64,000 nt of DNA from a virus (lineage: Duplodnaviria; Heunggongvirae; Uroviricota; Caudoviricetes): positions 16,983-80,982 of IMG/VR virus record IMGVR_UViG_2938655777_000006, one strand, 5' to 3'. Shown here in pieces: positions 3,478 to 45,300 of this stretch. Within the stretch, counting starts at the first letter, position 1. The number at the start of each line of letters is the position of its first letter. The notes beneath the pieces were generated by a model, which was given only the letters and a program-made list of their open reading frames with translations, did not search any database and was not told the origin of the DNA. The position numbers and the translations under genes were made by a program.

Positions 3478-4479
3478 TCAAAAAATCTGATTCTTCTCAT
3501 CTTCGAAATCACGTAAATCATAAATAGATGTGGTGGAAATATCATTGTGATGTGCAACGAACTTCGAAACTATTTTAATATCCTTACCACTTTCTAAAAG
3601 ATAGGTGATACATGAATTTTTAAAAATATGTACGTTAACTCTACGCTCCAAAATATCGGAGAGAGTATTTGAACAAAAATCATCTGCCCAAGCAGGAGAC
3701 ATAGCCTTTATCTCATTACCGTATTTAGTGGTAAAGATATATTCACTTTCATAGCCACGAGAATCTACCCATTTTTTCAAATGAGGAACAACGTCTAATG
3801 GGATCATATATTGAATCGGCTTCCCATCTATCGATTTACCTTTTCCTCTTACGTTATGAGTCATAATATAATTCTTGTCTTGTTGAACTTCATAATCCAA
3901 TATTTCAGTTTTAAACTGTATAATTTCGGAGCGTCTTGCACCAACTCTAAAAGCCGTAGCCAGCCAAGCCATTCCAAGCCAGTTTTCATCTTCTTCTAAG
4001 ACGTTCATCATCATGTCGTATTCATCTTTTGTAACTTTTACTTTTTCATAGACACGGTTTTTAGAAATAGCAGGGAGACCACGAGTAAAATTTCGGAAAC
4101 TTTTGTAGTTTTCATCCTCTTCTGCAATGATGTTTTCAATGTGATTACAGAAACTTGAGATAACTGACTTTCTAAAACTTATTGCAGAGGAAGACATCTT
4201 TCTGTTATCACGGATATAGCTTAAGTACCGCAAGAAATCTCTTTTTGTAATTTTATAGAAGAGTTTATTATTCATTGAAGTAACCATGTACCAACCGAAC
4301 TGCCTAATTACACTAGTGTACTGCTTGCGCGATTGAGGGGAGAGGTCTTGTACTGAGACAAATTCCTCAGCATTAAACCTGTAGTCTTCATTGACTTGTT
4401 GCCACATTTCATCTGTTACTTCGGGCTGCTTTTTTGCAGGTTCACGTAATGTATTCTGTTTGATTTCTTTTCTTGCCAT
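3478..4479 (-). CDS. Tyrosine recombinase/integrase family protein (SPbeta YomM-like position in tail module)
   Basis: GARRSE (catalytic Arg), HIFKNS (HxxR with R>K), HHNDISTTSIY (catalytic Tyr). Confidence 0.85.
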   Translation of the reverse strand: MARKEIKQNTLREPAKKQPEVTDEMWQQVNEDYRFNAEEFVSVQDLSPQSRKQYTSVIRQFGWYMVTSMNNKLFYKITKRDFLRYLSYIRDNRKMSSSAISFRKSVISSFCNHIENIIAEEDENYKSFRNFTRGLPAISKNRVYEKVKVTKDEYDMMMNVLEEDENWLGMAWLATAFRVGARRSEIIQFKTEILDYEVQQDKNYIMTHNVRGKGKSIDGKPIQYMIPLDVVPHLKKWVDSRGYESEYIFTTKYGNEIKAMSPAWADDFCSNTLSDILERRVNVHIFKNSCITYLLESGKDIKIVSKFVAHHNDISTTSIYDLRDFEDEKNQIF

Positions 4480-4570: not shown

Positions 4571-4586
4571 TAAAATAGCTCTTTTA
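4571..4586. repeat. Junction palindrome TAAAA-TAGCTC-TTTTA
   Basis: Same family; its arm contains the TAA stop of the 4584..5018 gene. Confidence 0.6.
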
Positions 4587-5018
4587 CTTAACTTCCACAT
4601 CAAGTCCTTGGCGTGATAATCCCCTATGAAGAGCAGTGAAATGGGCATTTGTATTACGCAACTCTTCAGCAGTTTTTTCTACGAATGGACGAGGACGACC
4701 AGAATAAGCAAAGTCAAAATTATACCCCTGTCCAGTTTCTACAACTTGTCCAACGTTTGTAATGCCATCTAAACGTCTACTTTCCACGGTCAAAATATTT
4801 CCAACAACTGGATGTGTGATTATGTTTTCATCATCAATCAATCCACCATGATTCATTTGTCGTTCATATATGGTGGGAGAATAGACATCGTAGACTTCTT
4901 CTTTAATTTTTTCTTTCTCTATTTCCCTAACACATTGTGCCACTTCTATTTGGAGAGACTTAGTTAACTTTTGCCGCAGTAGTTTTTCCAGCTCTTTGTA
5001 ACTATTCGCTGTCGGCAT
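4584..5018 (-). CDS. HK97 gp10-like tail-completion/neck protein
   Basis: ORF track; C-terminal PRPFVEKTAEEL motif typical of gp10-like proteins; position in the morphogenesis operon. Confidence 0.6.
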   Translation of the reverse strand: MPTANSYKELEKLLRQKLTKSLQIEVAQCVREIEKEKIKEEVYDVYSPTIYERQMNHGGLIDDENIITHPVVGNILTVESRRLDGITNVGQVVETGQGYNFDFAYSGRPRPFVEKTAEELRNTNAHFTALHRGLSRQGLDVEVK

Positions 5019-5481
5019 GGGAGTTTGTCTCGGTACTATTCATTTCTTCATTTGCTTTTCTTTCAATCTCCGCAAAATTATCTGCTATTTCCTTAAAACG
5101 TTTCTCTAATTTTTTGACCTCAACCTCAGGTAATTTATTTGCAACTTCTACGAAAATGTTTGTATTCAATAAATTCTCATACACCTTAATCAAAGTCTGA
5201 AAGTCATTCTTATTGGGAATGGGGAGGTCTGTAAATTCGCGTAGCATCAAAGTAGATCCAATTTGTGACGCAATTTGGCTGAAAGTTAATTCAGTAAGTT
5301 GTGACTTTTCAATCCCTTCTACAACTTCTATTAGTCCTGTAAAGATGTTATTAATTGAACTTTCTTTAAAGTTTTGCTTAATGGTCACTTCAAATTGACC
5401 ATCCAGAATGGGATATGTTTGCGTCTGTCCCAGTTCTTTGCTGAGTTTATTCAATTCTGAAACTGTTAATTTTTTAGCCAA
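5002..5481 (-). CDS. Putative tail assembly chaperone
   Basis: 159 aa, TTG start with SD AAAGGAG; position downstream of the tail tube gene. Confidence 0.45.
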   Translation of the reverse strand: MAKKLTVSELNKLSKELGQTQTYPILDGQFEVTIKQNFKESSINNIFTGLIEVVEGIEKSQLTELTFSQIASQIGSTLMLREFTDLPIPNKNDFQTLIKVYENLLNTNIFVEVANKLPEVEVKKLEKRFKEIADNFAEIERKANEEMNSTETNSHADSE

Positions 5482-5496
5482 TAATTACACTCTCCT

Positions 5497-6591
5497 TTAT
5501 TGTGGAAATGTTTCATCCAGTACTTTAGACCATTTTTCTTCCCATCTTTTACTATCAAACGCCATTGAAACTTCTCTTGCATTCTTACCAAATGTTTCGG
5601 CTTTATCTCTATTGTGATATAAATATTCAATTGAATTACATAGATTATCTACCGTAGGCTTAATCAGTAATCCATTATATCCATCAATAATTAGATCACT
5701 TAATCCACCTACGCAACTAGCTATAACTGGTTTTCCAAATGCCTGTGCTTCAATGCAGCTCAAACTTGTACCTTCTGCACCGAGAGTAGGGATTAAAACT
5801 ATATCTGCTTGTTCGTAAGCACGATACATTTTATTCATATCAAAATGTTCCCATCGAACTCGATCTTGAGTATTTACCCATCGCTTAAATTGTTGTTCGC
5901 CTTCAATTGTTCCTCTACCTACAAAGTAAAATTCCATATCTTCGTATTTGGGGAGAAGTTTCTTAGATGCTTCAGCCGCCAACAAATATCCTCTTAATTC
6001 ATGAAGTCTGCGAGGAATAAGCACTGTAAATTTACCTTTTCCTTTTTTCTCTCTAGGTTTAAAAGCATCGGTATTGACATAGTTCGGTATGTATTCAAAT
6101 TTATCATATAGTTTTGGATATAAAGCTTTAGTCCAACCAATAGTGTTTGTATCTACAGAAACAATTTTTCCTACACGGCGGTAGCAGTCTCTAATGTATT
6201 CATTGTATCCTTTAGCGTGATACCAATCTTGAATTTCATTGTCCCACCAAATACCATGTGAAATAGCAATAGAGTTCTTTCGTGCTTCGGGAAAAGCCAG
6301 AGTAGCTACAAAATATATAGTGTAATCATAATTTTCTGTCCGTTTATGAAACTCAATTGTTAGATCTGGAAAAGATTCTTTGTCACCAATGGGGCAGGGG
6401 ATACCAGTTATTTTTACATCCTTGAAGTTCTTTACCCAAGGCGTAGTAGATGCTTGAAAAACGTCTACAATATAATTCTTTTTTCTTAATAGACGTACTA
6501 GATCAATTAAATACCTTTCGCCGCCACCCATTTGAGTATATGTTCCACTTAAATCAAAGAATTGCGTTGTTAAGAGTGCTACCTTTTTCAT
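5497..6591 (-). CDS. Glycosyltransferase, GT4 family (GT-B fold)
   Basis: Start reassigned to ATG 6591 (SD AAGGAG; MKKVALLTT). Motifs GGGERY, IPNYVN, EGTSLSCIEAQAFGKPVIAS (EX7E), GGLSDLIIDGYNGLL. Confidence 0.92.
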   Translation of the reverse strand: MKKVALLTTQFFDLSGTYTQMGGGERYLIDLVRLLRKKNYIVDVFQASTTPWVKNFKDVKITGIPCPIGDKESFPDLTIEFHKRTENYDYTIYFVATLAFPEARKNSIAISHGIWWDNEIQDWYHAKGYNEYIRDCYRRVGKIVSVDTNTIGWTKALYPKLYDKFEYIPNYVNTDAFKPREKKGKGKFTVLIPRRLHELRGYLLAAEASKKLLPKYEDMEFYFVGRGTIEGEQQFKRWVNTQDRVRWEHFDMNKMYRAYEQADIVLIPTLGAEGTSLSCIEAQAFGKPVIASCVGGLSDLIIDGYNGLLIKPTVDNLCNSIEYLYHNRDKAETFGKNAREVSMAFDSKRWEEKWSKVLDETFPQ

Positions 6592-7588
6592 CCTTTTCTC
6601 CTTTGAAAAATTCCTTAATAGCGCTGTTAATGATTTCAAATCTATCATCCCATGAATTGTTTTTGGCCATTTTTTTAGCCTTATTTTTGTATTCGTTACA
6701 CTTAGATACTTTAATTGCTTTGTGAATATTTTTTATGAATTCTTTATGGTTTCTGCTTACAAATACTACATCTTTATAATCATCCATTTCAGGAATATCG
6801 GTTGCTACCACTGGAGTACCATGAGCAAGTGACTCATAAACTTTTAAAGGATTGCTGAAGTCACTGATTTGACAGCGTTGGAAGGGGAGAAGGGTAACAT
6901 CAGCGTGACGATAATAGGCTTGAAGTTCTTGGTATCCTTTTGAACCCAAATAATGAACCCCTTTAGGCATTTCTTTAATACCCCAAGGAAGTCCAACAAC
7001 AAAAACTTGATATTTCTTCGCAACTTTCTCCATAAGTAATAGATCGCACCAATTGGATGTAAGCGCACCTGAAAATAATACAATAGGCTTATTCTTTTTA
7101 ATGAATGGAATCAAGTCTTCAGGAATAGGATAGTCGAGATCTCCTAATTCTTTAAAACAGGCATTTTGAACCAAGTGTACATTTTTATGTTGTTTACTTC
7201 TTAGTTCTAGCAGAGGTTTGGAGGCAGCCAATAAGATATCTGCCTTATTTATCATGTTGTCTTCCTCATGTTCATTTTCTGGGAAATTGTCCAGTGAATC
7301 ATAAACAACTAAGTCAGCTTTAATACTTTCTAAATCTGTATGTCGCATAGCCCAAGATGAAAAGTAAATATCAACTTTAGGATGTCTTTTTAAAAAAACT
7401 TCCCAGCTATGATAAACTTCAAGTGTATCAGAGATGCGATCACGCACTTTATCGGTTCGTTGTGTGTAGTTAACCCAATAGACCATATATCCATTCTCAG
7501 AAAAATATTTCATAAGATGATGTGGTCGCTGCTGTAATGGCTGGTCGAAATCAATTGTATTAGCATAAACAATCGTTTTTTGTTTCAT
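6554..7588 (-). CDS. Glycosyltransferase, GT-B fold (TuaH-like)
   Basis: QRPHHL N-terminal motif, VYDSLD, SNPLKVYESLAHGTPVVAT. Confidence 0.88.
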   Translation of the reverse strand: MKQKTIVYANTIDFDQPLQQRPHHLMKYFSENGYMVYWVNYTQRTDKVRDRISDTLEVYHSWEVFLKRHPKVDIYFSSWAMRHTDLESIKADLVVYDSLDNFPENEHEEDNMINKADILLAASKPLLELRSKQHKNVHLVQNACFKELGDLDYPIPEDLIPFIKKNKPIVLFSGALTSNWCDLLLMEKVAKKYQVFVVGLPWGIKEMPKGVHYLGSKGYQELQAYYRHADVTLLPFQRCQISDFSNPLKVYESLAHGTPVVATDIPEMDDYKDVVFVSRNHKEFIKNIHKAIKVSKCNEYKNKAKKMAKNNSWDDRFEIINSAIKEFFKGEKDEKGSTLNNAIL

Positions 7589-8381
7589 TTAAGAACTCCC
7601 TTAAATATTCTGGACTCATAATATGATTCGAAAACACACTTAAATCACAAAAAAGCTCAAACCCTTTGTCCTGAGCCATTTTACAAAAGTATGCATCCTC
7701 GCCTTGCGGATGAAATCCGTATTTTACTGACTTATAGACTTTGCGACTTAGCAGAATTACTGCACCTGTTAAATCAACCTCCATAATAGTGGGAGAGGAG
7801 AGGAAGGGTGCATTTTTTACCTGATTGCTAACAATATGTTCAAAGTAGCCTTTACTATTAAGTTTCATGATGTTTGGATATAAATAGGGCTTCTCTGGAC
7901 AAGTAATATGACCATTCCAAATCAATCCTGATATGATATCCTTTTTATGTTTGAGTAGATTATTAATGATATCAGGTTGAACGAGGATGTCTGTGTCTAT
8001 ATACATCAGATGATCAGTTTTAGTCTTTGACATGATATAATTCCGTAATTTACTCAAGTGATCATATATAAAATTATTTCTTACATTGACATCTCTTTTG
8101 TCTTCTGGGGTATTACGATTATATAGATCGATTCGTATGTTTTTATATATGTGCTTATTTTCCTTTTTAAATTTGTTTAGAATATCAAATGATTTATCGT
8201 TAGAATCATTTACTACAAACAATAATTCGATTCTTTCTTTTGGATAATCAATAGTATGAATATGTTGTAAGTAAACAGGAAGAATCCAAGCTCTATTTCT
8301 AATGGGGGCAGCAATTGTAACTGTCGGTGTATTTATATTTTCACTTCCTAAAATTTGTGGTTGGATAAAATACCCAACCAC
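7560..8381 (-). CDS. Glycosyltransferase, GT-A fold (GT2/Anp1-like); true start may be ATA at 8336
   Basis: IAAPIRNR, VVNDSND, LRN, DxD motif (YIDTDIL), TGAVILL, GEDAYFC. Confidence 0.88.
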   Translation of the reverse strand: MVGYFIQPQILGSENINTPTVTIAAPIRNRAWILPVYLQHIHTIDYPKERIELLFVVNDSNDKSFDILNKFKKENKHIYKNIRIDLYNRNTPEDKRDVNVRNNFIYDHLSKLRNYIMSKTKTDHLMYIDTDILVQPDIINNLLKHKKDIISGLIWNGHITCPEKPYLYPNIMKLNSKGYFEHIVSNQVKNAPFLSSPTIMEVDLTGAVILLSRKVYKSVKYGFHPQGEDAYFCKMAQDKGFELFCDLSVFSNHIMSPEYLREFLNETKNDCLC

Positions 8382-8399: not shown

Positions 8400-9194
8400 T
8401 TACACAAGCTCATCTTCATCATAGATTGTCATTATGTATGTTTCTTTACGATCTACAGGCTTCAAAATCTCAATAGGAATATCGAACACAGAAGGGTCGC
8501 CTTCGGCAGCCATTGTCAAGTTCCAATTGTCTTCCATCTTAGCATCGAAAATATGAATCTGTGCTGCAAAATCTTCTTTTGTAACTGTATCTCGGATCAA
8601 GCAATCCAAAATAAGTTCATATGTACCCGCAAATTTATCTGAACTTACAGTAATCTGTTTAGCGGAAGCACCCGATTGAGTAGTATAGTAAGCTACAATT
8701 TTTGTGCCATCTGCGTATTCACCTGCTTTAAACGTAAGCTCTTTTCCTGAGATAGTATACTGCTTAGTTCCAAGTATTCCAGTAGAAAACTCAATTTCAT
8801 TTTCATGTACTTGGTCGGCAGTAAGAGTGTAAACGCTATTCAATCCATTTACAGGGGTAGCAGGAGTGAATTTAAGAGTAGCTTTGTCTCCAATAACCTC
8901 AAGAACATCGCGGTACTTAATAGGAACTTGTCCACTCTTAATATCATTACCAGTCATCATTGCAATAACTTCATTTGTAAAAATAGCATCTTGCAATGAA
9001 ACTTTACCGCCACGATCACCAGAAAATCCGACAATGCGGTTATTACCACGACCACCCATAGCATATACAGTGGTAGCAGTATTCTCGATTCCAGAAGTTT
9101 TAAGATTCTGAAGTTGAATCTTTGCTTTACCAGTTTTCTTATCATAAAACGTAGCAAGTGCAACCTCACGGATTGCCCAAGTATTAGGTGTCAA
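8400..9194 (-). CDS. Major tail tube protein
   Basis: TTG start at 9194 (MTPNTWAIREVA); beta-rich SPbeta-like tail tube family; position after tail terminator-type genes. Confidence 0.75.
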   Translation of the reverse strand: MTPNTWAIREVALATFYDKKTGKAKIQLQNLKTSGIENTATTVYAMGGRGNNRIVGFSGDRGGKVSLQDAIFTNEVIAMMTGNDIKSGQVPIKYRDVLEVIGDKATLKFTPATPVNGLNSVYTLTADQVHENEIEFSTGILGTKQYTISGKELTFKAGEYADGTKIVAYYTTQSGASAKQITVSSDKFAGTYELILDCLIRDTVTKEDFAAQIHIFDAKMEDNWNLTMAAEGDPSVFDIPIEILKPVDRKETYIMTIYDEDELV

Positions 9195-9212
9195 TATGAT
9201 CACACATCTTTC

Positions 9213-10939: not shown

Positions 10940-12154
10940 CTAAATAAGTGATTTAATTTCTATTTTTTTATTTTTATAAGCAAGCTTTGATCTATTCTGA
11001 CAGTGAAGCAAGAACGATCCTTTTTTGTTGTTTGCTTTAATCTTGCACGTATGTAATATCTGGTCTTGCTCTAAAATTGAGGCGAGTGAAGAGGGGGATG
11101 AGCCGTCAATATCTGTAATCCAATAATTAGTAATGTCATCTCTTTCGATACCATTATTAAAAACCGTTGACCTAAAATTTTTAATCATATTGTACTTAAT
11201 GCTATCATCACCAACAATTTCACACGAATAGTTGTTAGTAGTTGAAGCAGTTATATTAACATGAAGGGTCTTTGTAATATCTCTGAATGAAATAGACACT
11301 TTAACAAGTCCTTTTTCAACTGGGGTTAATAGACCAGTAGAAGAGATAGTAGCTTTCGATTCGTCATCAATTGCAAATATCAGTTCATCGCTGACATTGA
11401 CAACTTCACTTCTATTTTTAATTTCTATATTTATCTGTAAAGTTTGTTTGTCCTCTATTGAAATGTAGTCTCCATTTAGTATAGCTAACTGGTAATCGGC
11501 AACATTTCCATAGTAATCAGCAATTCCTAACTCAAGATTATCTTTAACAGGATTAATATCTCCAGAAGACCGCAAACTTAAATTTACAATACCTACATCA
11601 CTGACGCAATCGACATCTATAACTTCAAAAGCCTCGCCGCCAATAATAAAACGTTTTTCTTTTTTTATTTTTGAAGTGAATTGATTATATTGAGCAGCAA
11701 CTTGTCTCCGAGAAGAAGGTAAAATCATAGTTTTATCTTCATCGATTCCAATATTTGATCGTATATTTGAATATAATACGGAAGGCTGAGAATGAACACT
11801 TCCACTTTTATCTACCCATCGCAAATCGATATTACATTCTTCAAGTTTGCTTCGTTGATACATCTTATTGAAGTACGGTCTTTGAGTCACCAAAAAATTC
11901 AACTTGTTACTTATATTAAAAACTATATCGCCAGCTTTATAATCTCCGAACCTACTCAAAATATTTAGTACACCGTCTTTTGTAGATTGCTGAATGATAA
12001 CTCTTTTAGTTATGCCATCAATTAACACGTCAGTAGATTCGGGGGAATCAGCCAGAAGTTCATCAAAACCGCTTTGGGCAAACAAACTAAAATCATCGTT
12101 TTCAAATCCACTTACTCTACTGTGAGATCCCATTAGGTACCATGATTTAGACAT
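10940..12154 (-). CDS. Head-closure-like protein with Ig-like (Big_2) domain
   Basis: 404 aa; segment IDDESKATISSTGLLTPVEKGLVKVSISF is Big_2-like. Confidence 0.6.
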   Translation of the reverse strand: MSKSWYLMGSHSRVSGFENDDFSLFAQSGFDELLADSPESTDVLIDGITKRVIIQQSTKDGVLNILSRFGDYKAGDIVFNISNKLNFLVTQRPYFNKMYQRSKLEECNIDLRWVDKSGSVHSQPSVLYSNIRSNIGIDEDKTMILPSSRRQVAAQYNQFTSKIKKEKRFIIGGEAFEVIDVDCVSDVGIVNLSLRSSGDINPVKDNLELGIADYYGNVADYQLAILNGDYISIEDKQTLQINIEIKNRSEVVNVSDELIFAIDDESKATISSTGLLTPVEKGLVKVSISFRDITKTLHVNITASTTNNYSCEIVGDDSIKYNMIKNFRSTVFNNGIERDDITNYWITDIDGSSPSSLASILEQDQILHTCKIKANNKKGSFLLHCQNRSKLAYKNKKIEIKSLI

Positions 12155-16027: not shown

Positions 16028-17563
16028 TTAATGATTTTTAGGGTAGTCGTTTGAACCGTTCGTTTTAGATTTTATAGTATTTTCATTAGTGGGATTATCA
16101 TTACTTGGTCGTCCACCATTTTCTGTTGCTGTGTAAGAGGTGAGATGTGGTTTGTATTTTTCTTCAAAGTTTTCTGCAATTTCGTAATCCATAAGAGCGA
16201 GATAGGCATCAGGTCTAAATCCTGTTGCACTTATCCAGGCTATCAATGATCCCCTACCCAAAGTGTATAACTCTTTCATATTTGTGATTGTTTCACTTCT
16301 ATTGATATAGGTAATGGGGAGGTAATAAACCTCTATATAATCATTGGGATCTTGGATTATATTATAGTTGATGACTTTGTTAAATTCATTCTCAAGTTGT
16401 TCAATCCAAGAAAATATTTCAGCGGCAACCAAGTCTAAGTTCGTTTTTTGAGATGTAAAGTTGGAATCTTCGCCATTTAGTGCCGAACCAGCAAATCCCA
16501 AGTCTGTTGCAATCTTTTTAATTAATGCCTCTTCCGAATTAGTTTTCAATAGCTCCACATTTGCTGAAACTTTATCTAGCTTTGTGCCAGAAGCCACACT
16601 AAAAAAACTTACTTTTTTTCGATTACCCCTAGCAAATAATGCATTGCGAATATTGTCATGTTGATCTTTTTGCTGTGTATTTGTTAGTGAAGATGATCCC
16701 TTGGAATCCCCTTCAGGGAAAGTTTGATAAATAATTAAATTATTATTATCGTCCAATACACCTCTTTTTGATTCTGTAAAATAATCTTCATAAAGCATAT
16801 CTATAAAAGCAGCAAGCCCGATTGGTCTGCCATAAGGTTCTTCAATTGAAGCCCTCACCTTAGATGAGACTGTTTTCTTATTGTCTAGCACCATCCATTT
16901 TTTAGTTGTATCTTTTCGATATTCCTGATATTTCTTTCTAATCTCTTGAGGATATCGCTTAAGTTTTAGACTGCGACCATTACTCAAAAATTGATCAAAA
17001 TAAGATAAATTGAAAGCAACAACATATGAGGAATTTAAAGTACCAATAATTCTACAATAGTCTGTAGGTAGAGGCATTAAAGCACAATTAAAATCAAAAT
17101 CATTGATTTCTTTGATTTGAGATATATCATAGTCTTCTAAAGTAGAGGGGAGAGAGGAAGAGAGTTCGGTATTGAAATAGTAATAAACAATTCCGTCCAT
17201 TGCCAACTTTCTTATAGCGTCCCTGATAAGAACTTTGTCACGTATTTTCTTTAGAGATTTTTTGTATTTTTCAACATTTTTTTTTGACTTGTTATGATTG
17301 TTTTTATTTGTACTATAAACAACATTATCGAGCGTTGGAAGAGAAACCATATAGTCAATAACATTGGTATACACACCATTAGCATTATACATTCTTCCAG
17401 ACAGGTGCCTTAACTCCAGATGATATAGCATGGGATCTTTCAACCAACGTTTGACTTGTGAATTGGTTATTTCCCCGCTGTCTCCAATAAATAATTCAAA
17501 TGATCTTAGATTAGAATTCCACTCATATAAAGACTGATCTTTTTCATCGTTCAGCTTATTCAC
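16028..17563 (-). CDS. Portal protein; start probably CTG at 17554
   Basis: About 510 aa directly downstream of terminase; PYGRPIGLAAF family motif. Confidence 0.8.
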   Translation of the reverse strand: MNKLNDEKDQSLYEWNSNLRSFELFIGDSGEITNSQVKRWLKDPMLYHLELRHLSGRMYNANGVYTNVIDYMVSLPTLDNVVYSTNKNNHNKSKKNVEKYKKSLKKIRDKVLIRDAIRKLAMDGIVYYYFNTELSSSLPSTLEDYDISQIKEINDFDFNCALMPLPTDYCRIIGTLNSSYVVAFNLSYFDQFLSNGRSLKLKRYPQEIRKKYQEYRKDTTKKWMVLDNKKTVSSKVRASIEEPYGRPIGLAAFIDMLYEDYFTESKRGVLDDNNNLIIYQTFPEGDSKGSSSLTNTQQKDQHDNIRNALFARGNRKKVSFFSVASGTKLDKVSANVELLKTNSEEALIKKIATDLGFAGSALNGEDSNFTSQKTNLDLVAAEIFSWIEQLENEFNKVINYNIIQDPNDYIEVYYLPITYINRSETITNMKELYTLGRGSLIAWISATGFRPDAYLALMDYEIAENFEEKYKPHLTSYTATENGGRPSNDNPTNENTIKSKTNGSNDYPKNH

Positions 17564-17566
17564 CTC

Positions 17567-19417
17567 CTAGTTGTAAAAGAATTGAAAGTTGTATTCCTCA
17601 TTGCTTCTATTTAACAATTTTTCTCTACGTAATTGCTGTAAATGCCAAGCTAACATTGCCAAGCAGTAAGCTCTATCGTCGTGCATTTTAGATTCTTTTT
17701 CAGGTGAAAGCGCATATCTACGTCCACCGTTCGGATTATCATATCTATAAATATTGACGACTTCTTCTTTTGCTAAGTCAATATTCTTTAAAGCTAACTC
17801 TTCATCAAAAGAAAGTTTATGTATTTTCTCTTTACTGGTAACACTCTTGTTTTTGTTCTTCTTCTCATCTTCGTATTCAATTTCTTCATTATCGAAAAGG
17901 GTGAGATACCCCTTCATATCATATTCTTCTGTGAATGATATGAGGTCTAAACCAAGCATTTCAACTAAGGCATCGAACATTTCGGTTTTATATTTTTTAG
18001 GATTCATAAGTTTTATCTTGTCTGCCGCATTTGGGAATTTAGATATATAATCACTAGACTCTTTTTTGTCGATCAGACCTTTGTGTAAAATTCCTTTTGA
18101 ATCTGTCCAATCCTCCATAAAGTCATCAGCTATATTGACCCCACCACCACCAGCGCCTGAATCGATTAATAGTGCAGATATATTTTCGTAATCTGCTGAA
18201 TGAGTACCGTTATAATCAAGTATCATCTGTTTTAGATGAGCTATCTGTTCAGGCGTTCTCATTGGAGTCTTTTTTTCTTTGGCTATATCTACAAAACTTA
18301 CTCCGTTACAAATTCTCATTTTATAACCAACAGTTTCATCCCAGTAGATTTCTCCTACCATTGTAATTGAGTTATCATACGAACGTGCAGGGTCATATGC
18401 TAATGCTATTTTATTTCCTGTGTTATTATAGAGGAGAGGAAGTCTAACTTCGCTATTTCTTATGATTACAGACCTTTTAACTGCTTGATTCTCTCCACCT
18501 TCAGTGGAAAACTTATTATAGTACTCACGAAGTGCCTTTTCCTTATTTTTTCTCATTGCATCATCAATAACTTCTTGTTTAAGCAATCCAACTGGATATT
18601 TTTTACCGTTAAAAGTAGCATTAATAACGATTTCAGCATTTATGTCTGCTACAAAATATCGATTATCGCCAATAAACATTTTCTTAGCATAGTCTTTGTA
18701 TACCTTATAGAAATAGGTGTCGGTTCCAGATGCAGAAGAAGCAAATATTGCTTGGTTGGGAAATTGCTTAGGCTCAAGACTAATATCAATATCTCCACCA
18801 AGCTTAAAGTTACTATCTTGAGTAATAAAGGGGAGAGAGGTAACAAAAAGTTCTTCGGGGGCGAAACCACTCTCATCATATACATTTAAATTCGACCTTT
18901 TAGATCTGTTATTATCGTATGAGCCATTGAGAGAATTGAGCGCCGCGCCGTTGTATAGCTTATATTGAAATGAAGCAGGGTTGTGAGTAAATCCATCTGT
19001 ATTTGCTGAACTCTTTACGGTTTCATTGTAGAAAATATCGGTAAGACCAGTAAAAGACGAAATTTCTTTTTTTGCTATTTTTTCAATTTTGAGAAATGTT
19101 TCTTGGGCTTGCGAACCTACACCAGCCATAATGTAAGCCTGAAAGTTGGGTATCAAATTTGTTTTAGCCATAACAAAAGGAGCCAACATCGTTGTTTTAC
19201 CACTTCCCCGTGACTGACACCAAACGTTAAATGGGGTGACCCAACTCATCATAAATACATATTTTTGATTATCAAGAAATTCGATGCCATAGAAAATTTC
19301 GCAGAACTTAACAGGGAATTTCCTTCCATATTGAATTATTTTTGCTAGTTTTAAATACCCCTCAAGTTTCCTTGCTGATAGTTCTCCTTGGGTTTCTCTA
19401 ACAATAATATTAGCTAT
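17567..19417 (-). CDS. terL: Terminase large subunit (616 aa if started at ATA 19417)
   Basis: Walker A SRGSGKT, Walker B VYDES, nuclease-domain YDPA. The frame is open for 55 codons upstream of the track ATG, back to an in-frame TGA; SD-like GGATGGTGGTG lies 6 nt before the ATA. Confidence 0.92.
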   Translation of the reverse strand: MANIIVRETQGELSARKLEGYLKLAKIIQYGRKFPVKFCEIFYGIEFLDNQKYVFMMSWVTPFNVWCQSRGSGKTTMLAPFVMAKTNLIPNFQAYIMAGVGSQAQETFLKIEKIAKKEISSFTGLTDIFYNETVKSSANTDGFTHNPASFQYKLYNGAALNSLNGSYDNNRSKRSNLNVYDESGFAPEELFVTSLPFITQDSNFKLGGDIDISLEPKQFPNQAIFASSASGTDTYFYKVYKDYAKKMFIGDNRYFVADINAEIVINATFNGKKYPVGLLKQEVIDDAMRKNKEKALREYYNKFSTEGGENQAVKRSVIIRNSEVRLPLLYNNTGNKIALAYDPARSYDNSITMVGEIYWDETVGYKMRICNGVSFVDIAKEKKTPMRTPEQIAHLKQMILDYNGTHSADYENISALLIDSGAGGGGVNIADDFMEDWTDSKGILHKGLIDKKESSDYISKFPNAADKIKLMNPKKYKTEMFDALVEMLGLDLISFTEEYDMKGYLTLFDNEEIEYEDEKKNKNKSVTSKEKIHKLSFDEELALKNIDLAKEEVVNIYRYDNPNGGRRYALSPEKESKMHDDRAYCLAMLAWHLQQLRREKLLNRSNEEYNFQFFYN

Positions 19418-23913: not shown

Positions 23914-26514
23914 TTATGTCTCACGGGGACAATTTTTACTTCTTTGTTTTCTCTTTTTGTCACGCTCTTTTTCTTTTCGTACTATTTTGAAACAGTCGTC
24001 ACAATAAATCTGACGCTGTTTAGTTATGGTATATTTAACTCTGCATCTTTCACATGTTCCCAATTTATTTAGATTTCTTAATAAATTTTCCAATATAATA
24101 TCCCCGAATGATGACCATAGAGTTGTTTTAAAATTGCTTTTTTTGTTGTTATACAAGTACACAATTAAAACATCAACAATTTCGTTTCTACTTTTTTTAC
24201 TACTTGAAAATATATTTTCTCTTATGGATGTATAATGAAATAATTCGTCATTTGACTTTGTGTTTCCATCATTAGAGAACATAAACTTCTTATTCTTGTC
24301 TAATCTTTTGTAAACTTCAATTAAGTTCTCATCTAATAGTACAGGTTTTGTGGGATCGCTCAGCAAAAGGTTATAGTTGAATTTACCAGAGCCAATATTA
24401 TTAAAACTAATTCTAGGATTTGGGATAAGGGTTGACAGACGATTCATTACACTTTTATTTGAAAGCTCAACTTTTTTCTCTTCTTTGTCTTTTGCGTACA
24501 TAAAAAAGTAAGGCGCTTTTGATTTAGTATGCTTTAGTACGTTTTTCTTTATATGCTCTGGACGTTCTGGTTTGTACAGTGTTTTTGCATAATCGATTGT
24601 AAAGTTGTTTTCCATACATAAAATCTTGATAACATTAAGATCGATATTATCACTGTTCCAAATCTTCGTTATATCATTACTAATGATTCCAATGTTACCC
24701 CCCGTATACGCAGCGTTCAGTCCGTTAAATATACTCTTACTATTAACAAGTTCCGCTCCTGCCTTAGCCATCTCGTAATAAAGAGGGTATATACCTTGCA
24801 TGTTCCTCTTTGCAACATCGACTAGTGTTTTGTCGCAACAGACTAGGGCTTTGTCTCCGTCGTTGTCAAACATAAGTATCTTACTAATAGGATCATGAAT
24901 GCTGGTATATAAACTCTTAGTTACAAACCATCGCTTCATCTCTTTATTCTTCGAGTTCTTTCTTACGGCGTGTTCCCTATACAGATGAGGACTTCTAAGG
25001 CAATCTAGTTCAACAGCATTATCAAATAAATCACAAAACACTTCTGTATTCTTTAATAAGCCTTGAGGTTGATTAATTCCTAAGAAAAGATACTCACAAA
25101 ATGCATAGAGATCAGGGCTTATAAAAGTATACTTTCCCTCCACATCGATTTTTCCAGCTTTGGCATGTTTAATTAAACTTTTTTTCACTTGCTTAATTGT
25201 TTCTTTGCTATAAGTGTCGTTAAGAAGCTCTGGATAAATTTCCAGGGCTTTTTGGAAATGATTTTTGTGTTTGTTGTAGCTAGTGACACCCAAGATTTTT
25301 AGCATTGTGTCTTTGTCTGATCCAATTTTACGAATGTCTTGTACGGTTTCTGAGCTGATTATTTTTAGTTCTTCGTTTGTTATGTCGGTTAAAGTTTGCA
25401 TCATTTGATAATTTAATTTAGCGTATCCAATCACATCTTCTTCTTCATTGCACTTTCCAGCCTGACAATTATACTTTAAATATTTATTTATGTATTCTGA
25501 CCAAGAACTATAGTATTTCCACATTTTAAACTGACTCTTTGTAAAAATGACCTCTATTTCTTCTTTTAATATATCATGCTCTTTACCATAGATGTCTTTG
25601 ATGACTCCATATTTACTGTAGCCTACTTGTTTGTTTTTTTCTCTCAAAAATTTATCAAAAGGGAAGGGGACTAGTAACCCTTTGACCCAAGGAAGGCGAA
25701 TCATCATTGCTTTTTTACTTTTACGAGGTAAAATCATTCCACAACCATCTGTGTGTTCAATGGGAACATCCATAGCTTTACGTTCAATTTCATATGTTCT
25801 ATCTGAAATAAAGTCAACGGTAGTTTTTAGAGTTGTTGTCATATCATCAACGACAATAGACTTTTTAATATCAAAAGCGTGCCATTGTTCCGTAGCGCTA
25901 TTACAAAGAGCCAAGTATGCCAGATACTTGTTAATGTTTACGCCACCAAGTTCATTGATTTTTTCGATGGTTAATCCACACATTAATGTTCGCTGGTGAA
26001 CATGAAAAACCGATTCTTTAATAAATACAGTTTTCTTTGTTCTAATTTGCCCTGCACTTGCTGTAAAGCAAATATATTTCTCGTTGTTATAAAGAAATCC
26101 ATTAACAATGATATCTTTCAGAACATCGAAAAAGTATGTTTGTACTATGATTATATCTCTAAAGAGACTGCCTTCTTCAACTTGAAGGACTCTTGTTAGA
26201 GTTGAATCAAATACAGAAACAATATTCTTCAGATTTTTGCTATCAACTTCGTTTGGGCGAAGGGATCTAATAGTTTTATTAGATCTGAATAGAGCATATA
26301 GTTTATCTTTAGATTTTTTTATTCGTTTATTGGTGTACTTTAAGTATTGGTCAGTTTTGTTTAATAACATTGGATTATTCGAACATTTGCTTTTGATTTC
26401 TTTTAAGCTAGCTCTAAATCTATAATTTCTTTTTTGTCTTCTATGTATTTTCATTTCTTCTTCATCATAAAACGCGCTAGTATCGACACTAAATACATGT
26501 ACTTGTTTATTCAA
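23914..26514 (-). CDS. yonO: YonO-type single-subunit DNA-dependent RNA polymerase
   Basis: 866 aa; N-terminus resembles SPbeta YonO; TDGCG, RLPWVKG, LRSPH and catalytic DNDGD motifs. Confidence 0.92.
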   Translation of the reverse strand: MNKQVHVFSVDTSAFYDEEEMKIHRRQKRNYRFRASLKEIKSKCSNNPMLLNKTDQYLKYTNKRIKKSKDKLYALFRSNKTIRSLRPNEVDSKNLKNIVSVFDSTLTRVLQVEEGSLFRDIIIVQTYFFDVLKDIIVNGFLYNNEKYICFTASAGQIRTKKTVFIKESVFHVHQRTLMCGLTIEKINELGGVNINKYLAYLALCNSATEQWHAFDIKKSIVVDDMTTTLKTTVDFISDRTYEIERKAMDVPIEHTDGCGMILPRKSKKAMMIRLPWVKGLLVPFPFDKFLREKNKQVGYSKYGVIKDIYGKEHDILKEEIEVIFTKSQFKMWKYYSSWSEYINKYLKYNCQAGKCNEEEDVIGYAKLNYQMMQTLTDITNEELKIISSETVQDIRKIGSDKDTMLKILGVTSYNKHKNHFQKALEIYPELLNDTYSKETIKQVKKSLIKHAKAGKIDVEGKYTFISPDLYAFCEYLFLGINQPQGLLKNTEVFCDLFDNAVELDCLRSPHLYREHAVRKNSKNKEMKRWFVTKSLYTSIHDPISKILMFDNDGDKALVCCDKTLVDVAKRNMQGIYPLYYEMAKAGAELVNSKSIFNGLNAAYTGGNIGIISNDITKIWNSDNIDLNVIKILCMENNFTIDYAKTLYKPERPEHIKKNVLKHTKSKAPYFFMYAKDKEEKKVELSNKSVMNRLSTLIPNPRISFNNIGSGKFNYNLLLSDPTKPVLLDENLIEVYKRLDKNKKFMFSNDGNTKSNDELFHYTSIRENIFSSSKKSRNEIVDVLIVYLYNNKKSNFKTTLWSSFGDIILENLLRNLNKLGTCERCRVKYTITKQRQIYCDDCFKIVRKEKERDKKRKQRSKNCPRET

Positions 26515-43957: not shown

Positions 43958-44248
43958 ATGTTTGAGGATATCAGACAAATCACAGCAAAAGCGTTTTCTA
44001 TTCCAGTTGAATCAACTCACTTTTATCACCTGTATAATTATATTACATCAATCTTTTTGAAATTACATGAAGCGGAATACATAACGGAAAGCATGGAGGA
44101 CTTTTTGTGCAGCCTCTTTAAGTGGAAACCTGTTTTAAAACCTGAAGACATGGTAACCAAAATGATTGGACAGATATCAATAGTCAAGGCTTCAGGTTTG
44201 TATCTAGGAGAGGCAGATGATGCGTATTTACTAACCAACAAGAAATGA
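43958..44248 (+). CDS. Hypothetical protein
   Basis: ORF track; weak SD. Confidence 0.45.
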   Translation: MFEDIRQITAKAFSIPVESTHFYHLYNYITSIFLKLHEAEYITESMEDFLCSLFKWKPVLKPEDMVTKMIGQISIVKASGLYLGEADDAYLLTNKK

Positions 44249-44274
44249 ATTAAAAATAAAAGGAGTGCACAAGC

Positions 44275-44616
44275 ATGACAGAAAATGATTTGGACGAGTT
44301 CTTTCTTCCAAGGCTGCAAATTAAATGCGTGAACATAAGCAGTGATTACAGAATTACAGAATGGAAGTATGAATTAGTATACAAACATTTTGATAATGAT
44401 ATTGCTTATGTTTCATTGGGGTCTACAAAAAGAGAAACAGGAAGAACTGAAATACCATTGAATGAAGATGGAACACTAGATTTGCCATTTAGAGATGGTG
44501 TCCATATTAAGCATGATGCTATTCAATTAAACCTGCCCGCATTCGCAATATGTGGAGATATTATTCAAAAAATTGATTTAATTAAATTTAAAAAGAAGCT
44601 CCCTGAGAGGTATTGA
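44275..44616 (+). CDS. Hypothetical protein
   Basis: ORF track; SD AAGGAG. Confidence 0.7.
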   Translation: MTENDLDEFFLPRLQIKCVNISSDYRITEWKYELVYKHFDNDIAYVSLGSTKRETGRTEIPLNEDGTLDLPFRDGVHIKHDAIQLNLPAFAICGDIIQKIDLIKFKKKLPERY

Positions 44617-44768
44617 ATTAATAAAACAGTTATTTTACAAGGAGGTAAGAAAAGAAATGCCTAAATGGTATAATGACCCATATTGTATTTTCGCCTTCTG
44701 TGTTGCAACTCTGACTGTTATTGTAGTGATGATGTTTAAATATGTTTTTTAATAGAGGAGATGAAGAG

Positions 44769-45059
44769 ATGGATTTGAATAGAACATTAATACATATGGG
44801 ATATGGCATTGATTCTTTAGGCTATAAAAACATCAAGAACGAAAAGCAAGAGTTGATGTTGGATATTGCAATTGAACTAGCATCAACATTGTGGAAGTCA
44901 AATAAATTAGATAAATTTGATCTGATTTCTTTTATTGATAGTACAGTTGACGACTTTATAGATGCATTGTATGACGAATTCGAGATTAATCCCGATATAT
45001 CAAGAACAGAATTTATATATGTTTGGTATAAAGATAAAATTCATAAGAACTTGAAATAA
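44769..45059 (+). CDS. Hypothetical protein
   Basis: ATG 44769 after SD GAGGAG. Confidence 0.65.
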   Translation: MDLNRTLIHMGYGIDSLGYKNIKNEKQELMLDIAIELASTLWKSNKLDKFDLISFIDSTVDDFIDALYDEFEINPDISRTEFIYVWYKDKIHKNLK

Positions 45060-45300
45060 GAAGTGCTTAACAGGAGGTAAATATATGAAAGTGTTTGTAA
45101 TACTCGAGGACGTGGAAGAGGCATACGTTTTTAGTGTCAACGGGGTTTTGGTGGAAATTTTTCAAAGTGAAGAAGCAGCAAAGGCATTTTGTGATGAACA
45201 TAATAGAGAAAGACCTTATTCAGAATATTACTATGAAGAACGAGAAGTACGTAAAAGTTGAATTTTACAATGTAAAAAACACATAAGGAGTGGCATATTT

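Follow-up and report, generated by a model that had tools for sequence, protein, structure and literature searches.

A glycosyltransferase cassette of varying composition in the virion operon of an SPbeta-like Paenibacillus provirus may glycosylate virion proteins

Why would a phage keep three sugar-transferring enzymes among the genes that build its own tail? The question is raised by positions 5497-8381 of a 64,000-nucleotide stretch of DNA (hereafter, the window), which covers positions 16983-80982 of the 201,847-bp IMG/VR provirus IMGVR_UViG_2938655777_000006. Here, three glycosyltransferase genes lie between the tail tube gene and two small open reading frames (ORFs). The evidence tips, if modestly, towards these enzymes glycosylating one or more virion proteins, late and in the cytoplasm. 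Judged by its genes, the provirus is SPbeta-like and belongs to Paenibacillus: named homologues of window proteins come nearly all from Paenibacillus, the polymyxa group above all, and the SPbeta-like assignment, already proposed in an earlier reading of the DNA that used no database searches (the sequence-only reading), holds because an 866-amino-acid protein encoded upstream shares 52% of its residues with SPbeta YonO, an RNA polymerase. A megablast search of cultured phages revealed no DNA similar to this element.

The three genes all lie on the minus strand, and their products were assigned to families by the curated cut-offs of Pfam. The first encodes a 273-amino-acid enzyme of the GT-A class (7560..8381) that is Anp1/GT62-like and GT2-like; it matched Anp1 (2.4e-15; 57.1 bits against a cut-off of 28.8) as well as Glycos_transf_2. 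It is followed by a TuaH/CgeB-like GT-B enzyme of 344 amino acids, here called GT4a (6554..7588), with matches to Glyco_trans_1_4 (2.9e-11), Glycos_transf_1 and Glyco_trans_1_2, and then by a 383-amino-acid GT-B enzyme of family GT4, here called GT4b (5497..6648), with matches to Glycos_transf_1 (8.4e-25) and Glyco_transf_4. For the C-terminal nucleotide-sugar domain, scores were 35.9-44.2 bits in GT4a and 87.7 bits (Glycos_transf_1) in GT4b, against cut-offs of 26.4-27. These matches bear out the proposal of one GT-A and two GT-B enzymes between the tube gene and ORFs in the position of tail assembly chaperones. Across 34 aligned homologues of the GT-A enzyme, the DxD motif (D129, D131), N58, D62 and E228-D229 are invariant, and D59, S60 and H253 nearly so; GT4a likewise keeps its invariant residues (alignment A4). 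An alignment-based AlphaFold2 (AF2) model of the GT-A enzyme, used in place of a single-sequence model with a predicted local distance difference test (pLDDT) score of 38, reached a pLDDT of 93.9. It consists of a single domain with a GT-A fold, whose nearest structures are COLGALT1 GT1, LH3 and Mnn9, with TarS, TarP and RmlT among the matches.

All three enzymes look soluble. None contains a membrane segment (the 19-residue Kyte-Doolittle maximum is 1.43), as had been supposed from the letters alone, and the GT-A enzyme has no hydrophobic segment that could serve as the type II membrane anchor of Golgi mannan polymerase subunits. Gtr-type seroconversion (GtrA/GtrB/GtrC) relies on a membrane-bound bactoprenol glycosyltransferase, a GtrA flippase and a membrane GtrC, encoded near the lysogeny module, and so differs from the cassette, which lacks transmembrane segments and has the tube and small tail ORFs as its neighbors; these two features support the earlier decision to set a Gtr-type membrane system aside, and the sole Gtr-type match of the cassette was marginal (phrog_841, 7e-4). 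The gaps between the cassette and its flanking genes (the tube gene and the next ORF) measure 15-63 nucleotides, and a consensus scan found no promoter- or terminator-like sites at the cassette borders, with only weak intragenic matches that were fewer than in shuffled sequence. The sequence-only reading had noted that no sugar-synthesis gene is adjacent, and this extends to the whole 201.8-kb provirus, where we found no Epimerase or NTP_transferase match and no further GT2 or GT1 match; host nucleotide sugars must therefore be used. The reading frames do overlap as described, although the overlap of 95 nucleotides between GT4a and GT4b is likely 38 nucleotides, because an ATG at 6591 that is probably the GT4b start sits behind an AAAGGAG Shine-Dalgarno motif. 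The GT-A gene may start at an ATA near 8336 (region 8334-8381), behind AGGAAGTGA, which agrees with an earlier remark on ATA starts.

We hypothesize that the three soluble enzymes would be co-transcribed with the late virion operon and would, ahead of particle assembly or while it is under way, put together a short glycan on one or more proteins exposed on the virion (candidates being the tail tube, the capsid and decoration proteins). Starting from host nucleotide sugars, the Anp1-like GT-A enzyme and its GT4a partner would lay down a core, which the third, variable enzyme (GT4b in the window) would extend. Where partner enzymes are exchanged at a recombination-prone slot, related phages would end up with different glycans.

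Is the cassette a regular part of such phages? Searching IMG/VR with the GT-A enzyme and with a conserved head-tail protein yielded 22 distinct related proviruses, and synteny across these relatives, a check suggested at the outset, placed a glycosyltransferase cassette in exactly this slot in 20 of them. Homologues of the two small ORFs border the slot in all relatives. The GT-A gene always comes first, at 51-84% identity, and all 20 cassettes retain their catalytic residues and intact frames even where identity drops to 51%. Behind this constant gene we found five partner combinations: GT4a plus GT4b as in the window (four relatives), a GT4a relative at 40% identity together with a CgeB-like GT-B enzyme (11 relatives), a single GT-B enzyme (two relatives), GT8 plus a GT32-like enzyme (two relatives) and a mixed form (one relative). 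GT4b is confined to type I cassettes (the window, L002, L003, L005, L008 and L048). In L005 and L008 the GT-A enzyme is 73% identical and GT4a/GT4b are 96-99% identical, with identity jumping at the gene borders; such steps place recombination breakpoints between the cassette genes. The tube gene comes in three types (A, B and C) that are mutually ~25% identical and alignable, and all three reassort freely with the cassette types. The enzymes are thus not tied to one tube.

The same GT-A family recurs well beyond this group. Relatives are encoded on at least 168 IMG/VR stretches, and the GT-A family, mostly paired with a GT4a-like GT-B enzyme, lies inside the head or tail modules of at least 10 unrelated phage lineages. 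It is found with a GT4 enzyme between terL and the portal gene in a Collibacillus prophage, and with further glycosyltransferases between the large terminase and portal genes of contig L137. In a Mu-like contig, it stands behind head-completion genes (Mu Gp36/Gp37-like) with three more glycosyltransferases. It directly follows the major capsid gene in L042 and L138, accompanied by a multi-glycosyltransferase protein of 1254-1283 amino acids and, in L042, additionally by methyltransferases and a UDP-sugar dehydrogenase. Other settings are behind the portal gene and beside a methyltransferase (L139), 2.4 kb before the terminase gene (L140), behind a YomU-type tube in further SPbeta-like contigs, and within the block of structural genes that PhiF1, an archaeal virus, carries; one 160-kb contig showed no clear context. 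In a complete 39.7-kb T7-like genome, the gene lies between those for the major capsid protein and tail tubular protein A, and lysogenic conversion is unlikely there because the gene layout looks lytic. This recurrence in the morphogenesis modules of unrelated viruses supports the hypothesis that the enzymes act on virion proteins.

In bacterial genomes, the GT-A enzyme is paired with a GT4a-like enzyme, placed before or after it, in ~70 of 78 loci. In Fictibacillus halophilus (L106:7951-11026), a 572-amino-acid fusion of a methyltransferase with an Anp1-like GT-A domain is encoded directly downstream of the flagellin gene in a flgK-fliD cluster, which makes it a candidate flagellin glycosylation enzyme. 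Virion protein glycosylation gains support from this methyltransferase-fused relative, because a place behind a flagellin gene is typical of protein glycosylation. Other bacterial relatives have other neighbors. In Syntrophomonadaceae, a conserved chromosomal trio of a GT4a-like enzyme, a GT-A enzyme and a cysteine-rich 188-amino-acid DUF8305 protein lies beside veg and spoIIR (L093:8605-11392 and ~50 loci, L054-L103; 75-98% identity across most species) and may act on the spore surface. A Pelosinus GT-A locus lies between spoIVB and recN. A second Paenibacillus/Priestia locus, present in at least 12 species (L118:9061-18307, L104, L107, L109-L116, L119 and L125), encodes a GT-D-like enzyme, a GT-A enzyme ~30% identical to that of the window, a GT4 enzyme, three unknown ORFs and a 1298-amino-acid protein with a weak minor-tail match; it adjoins scpA and an amidase gene. 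We infer that such bacterial neighborhoods would suit enzymes that glycosylate assembled protein structures at the surface.

Precedents exist for both kinds of substrate. Virion glycosylation in mycobacteriophages has reportedly been described by Freeman et al. 2023, with Che8 gp108-110, Corndog gp35-38 and Myrna as cases. Two papers treat virion glycosylation by phage-encoded enzymes as established in mycobacteriophages (PMC12363180, PMC12619734), and the latter places the glycans at the C-terminal ends of the capsid and tail tube proteins. Because such a process is established there, it lends support to virion glycosylation here. The likeness lies in phage-encoded soluble glycosyltransferases, in Corndog-type genes placed among structural genes, in the capsid and tail tube as targets (which here are proposed only), and in companion methyltransferases beside some GT-A relatives (L042, L139). 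The two systems differ in that the hosts here are Firmicutes, that the present system is known from its genes alone and that no C-terminal acceptor region was found; moreover, a tblastn search of 50,697 phage records found no mycobacteriophage relative of the three enzymes at the sequence level. Gram-positive flagellin O-glycosylation islands share with the cassette a soluble enzyme gene beside the gene for a self-assembling filament subunit, although their substrate would be flagellin and not a phage protein, and the Fictibacillus gene is itself uncharacterized.

Several observations weigh against virion proteins as the substrate. Neither a Ser/Thr-rich tract nor a shared C-terminal tag was present on 16 late-operon and nine downstream tail proteins; the tube C-termini are acidic in 19 relatives. 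Among the relatives, the GT-A enzyme is not co-inherited with one tube type. The resemblance of the GT-A model to COLGALT1, its best structural match, was taken up as a possible sign of a protein acceptor and then dropped, since the matched GT1 domain is non-catalytic and hence uninformative on the acceptor. The nearest named relatives of GT4a (TuaH) and GT4b (TarM) are cell-wall polymer enzymes, even if far under family cut-offs, and the bacterial homologues of the GT-A/GT4a pair are chromosomal. Finally, the slot accepts other genes. The yomU-yomO interval of SPbeta (SPBc2) has the same order of tube, slot, two small ORFs, YomM recombinase and tape measure, with the YonO polymerase upstream, yet its slot holds youA, yomT, yomS, yomR, yomQ and yomP (PBSX XkdV/W/X- and XepA-like; SPBc2 44037-45295 and neighbors) and no glycosyltransferase. 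In L026 and L033, small unknown ORFs fill the slot instead of a cassette, and in Brevibacillus phage Sundance it is empty. Because SPbeta, L026 and L033 hold unrelated genes there and Sundance none, the junction between tube and chaperone position is a cargo hot spot across SPbeta-like phages, and position alone is therefore weak evidence. The sequence-only reading had proposed soluble late enzymes that make a glycan on tail or capsid proteins. Its first half is supported, in that the enzymes are soluble and, by context, probably late and virion-linked (tight gaps, no promoter- or terminator-like sites at the borders, a family found in head and tail modules); its second half fares less well, with no acceptor motif found, tube and cassette types uncoupled and the slot a general site for cargo.

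If not a virion protein, what else might these enzymes modify? The alternative that survives best, which we regard as credible but unlikely, is that they act in the cytoplasm on a host envelope glycopolymer (wall teichoic or teichuronic acid, or S-layer or capsule precursors), as TarM, TarS and TarP do, and thereby alter phage receptors so that superinfection is excluded or progeny are kept off debris. TarM, TarS and TarP are soluble enzymes that need no flippase, and the likeness of the cassette to prophage-borne TarP and to host TarM and TarS takes in soluble cytoplasmic GT-A or GT4 enzymes, Firmicutes prophages as a setting and weak sequence similarity. TarM is the best solved sequence relative of GT4b (6e-11, in a match limited to the C-terminal nucleotide-sugar half), TuaH is the best NCBIfam match of GT4a (46 bits, far under its cut-off), TarS, TarP and RmlT are among the GT-A matches, and chromosomal homologues are common in Firmicutes. 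However, the TarM, TuaH and TarS/TarP matches all fall far under family cut-offs, and the cassette enzymes reached no NCBIfam equivalog cut-off. They also lack the accessory domains that go with equivalog-level similarity in TarM (DUF1975) and in TarS and TarP (a trimerization domain), the GT-A enzyme being a single bare catalytic domain of 273 amino acids. TarP is a moron that is expressed from the prophage and has an oligomerization domain, whereas the cassette belongs to the late operon, shows no promoter-like site at its borders and lies far from the lysogeny switch. In addition, receptor conversion is hard to reconcile with the members of the family that lie in head modules or in the T7-like genome.

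A little less likely again, in our view, is that a recombination hot spot simply collected the cassette as selfish or neutral cargo, with enzymes that act on something else (a small molecule, or a phage or host protein outside the virion) and a position devoid of functional meaning. The unrelated genes in the slot of SPbeta, L026 and L033 favor this explanation, as do the breakpoints within cassettes (GT-A at 73% against GT4a/GT4b at 96-99% identity) and homing-endonuclease-like ORFs in or beside some of them. These are found among extra ORFs of 380-412 amino acids (L034:13324-14466, L037:12602-13738 and L015:6713-7951), two of the three having homing-endonuclease-type domains (DUF7487/DUF559; HNH_repeat/PvuRts1I-like). 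Neutral cargo sits poorly with catalytic residues and frames that remain intact in every one of the 20 cassettes, those at 51% identity included, and a neutral hot spot does not explain why the same family occupies different slots in the virion modules of unrelated phages.

A more specific purpose can be imagined for glycosylation of the tail tube, although we consider it improbable. The tube protein (8400-9203, minus strand), encoded directly upstream of the cassette, belongs to the YomU family (phrog_2729, 2.5e-51) and is a candidate acceptor. Its homologues carry tail tube or major tail protein annotations in Tsamsa, Izhevsk and PJN02, and a profile of it picked up the solved tail tube protein of SPR (8K98) along with related entries (E 3e-16), a match for which the profile was needed, as a single-sequence phmmer search of the PDB gave none. 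The SPR tail tube protein triggers the DSR2 abortive-infection NADase system (PMC11263360, PMC11850899). The cassette could glycosylate the nascent tube in the cytoplasm and hide its monomers from sensors such as DSR2, with partner swapping as the mark of an arms race. This idea arises because the tube is homologous to the DSR2-activating SPR tube, the cassette directly follows it and glycan content would vary among close relatives.

Late glycosylation of phage DNA as a protection from restriction is very improbable, even with Mu mom as an example of late DNA modification in other phages, since the genes lie among virion and not replication genes, the enzymes do not resemble T4 AGT/BGT, no hydroxymethyl-base pathway was found in the provirus, the one thymidylate synthase relative that it encodes is of the canonical ThyA kind (best match B. 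subtilis ThyA, 7e-57), and no Tet/JBP (Tet_JBP) match was found there in a search whose control was itself silent. In its favor is the diversity of DNA-hypermodifying phage glycosyltransferases (Pyle 2024, as relayed in PMC12619734).

The cassette is part of a long operon. On the minus strand, the order is terminase, portal, head genes, tube, three glycosyltransferases, two small ORFs, recombinase, DUF1617 and tape measure. The large terminase gene (17567-19252) precedes that of the portal protein (16028-17563). Downstream of the cassette, two overlapping small ORFs (5002-5481 and 4584-5018), which belong to the function-unknown families phrog_7383 and phrog_19892 and by position would be the tail assembly chaperones, form the border of the slot. 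They are followed by a YomM-like tyrosine recombinase gene (3478-4479), a gene for a DUF1617 protein and the tape measure gene (1-2919), which extends beyond the window; all of these are on the minus strand. The YonO-type single-subunit RNA polymerase (23914..26514, minus strand; phrog_8308, 5.9e-293) shares 52% identity with yonO from SPBc2 and Goe11/12. In SPbeta, YonO acts in late transcription, and by analogy the enzyme here probably transcribes the late operon. Two further proteins come into view as possible acceptors. A 404-amino-acid late protein (10940-12154, minus strand; phrog_16444) has a C-terminal part that, on inspection by eye, resembles an Ig-like domain (Big_2-like); it may decorate the particle surface and would then be a further candidate. 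The sole collagen-like ORF of the provirus record (G-X-Y repeats; 247 amino acids, 192412-193155, plus strand) was considered as a candidate collagen-like acceptor; it lies outside the window (G000:C1), ~170 kb from the cassette, in DNA that may be phage or host flank.

To our knowledge, phage-encoded virion glycosylation has been demonstrated in mycobacteriophages only. The concept is thus already known, and what is new is the setting, a cassette in an SPbeta-like virion operon. We found no paper that places glycosyltransferase genes within the virion operon of a Paenibacillus or SPbeta-like phage, in keeping with the sequence-only reading, which knew of no such description for SPbeta-like phages. 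If our hypothesis is correct, virion glycosylation would extend to large temperate SPbeta-like phages of Firmicutes, carried out by unrelated enzymes. The five enzyme combinations in one slot form a natural variant series for the role of the glycan, be it in adsorption, in keeping the particle stable or in escaping host sensors, and because Paenibacillus polymyxa lysogens are culturable, the prediction is directly testable. The GT-A/GT-B pair spans siphoviruses, myoviruses, Mu-like phages, a T7-like podovirus and an archaeal virus, with bacterial cousins beside flagellin and sporulation genes; such a spread would, if the hypothesis holds, indicate a general and portable means of sugar-coating self-assembling protein structures.

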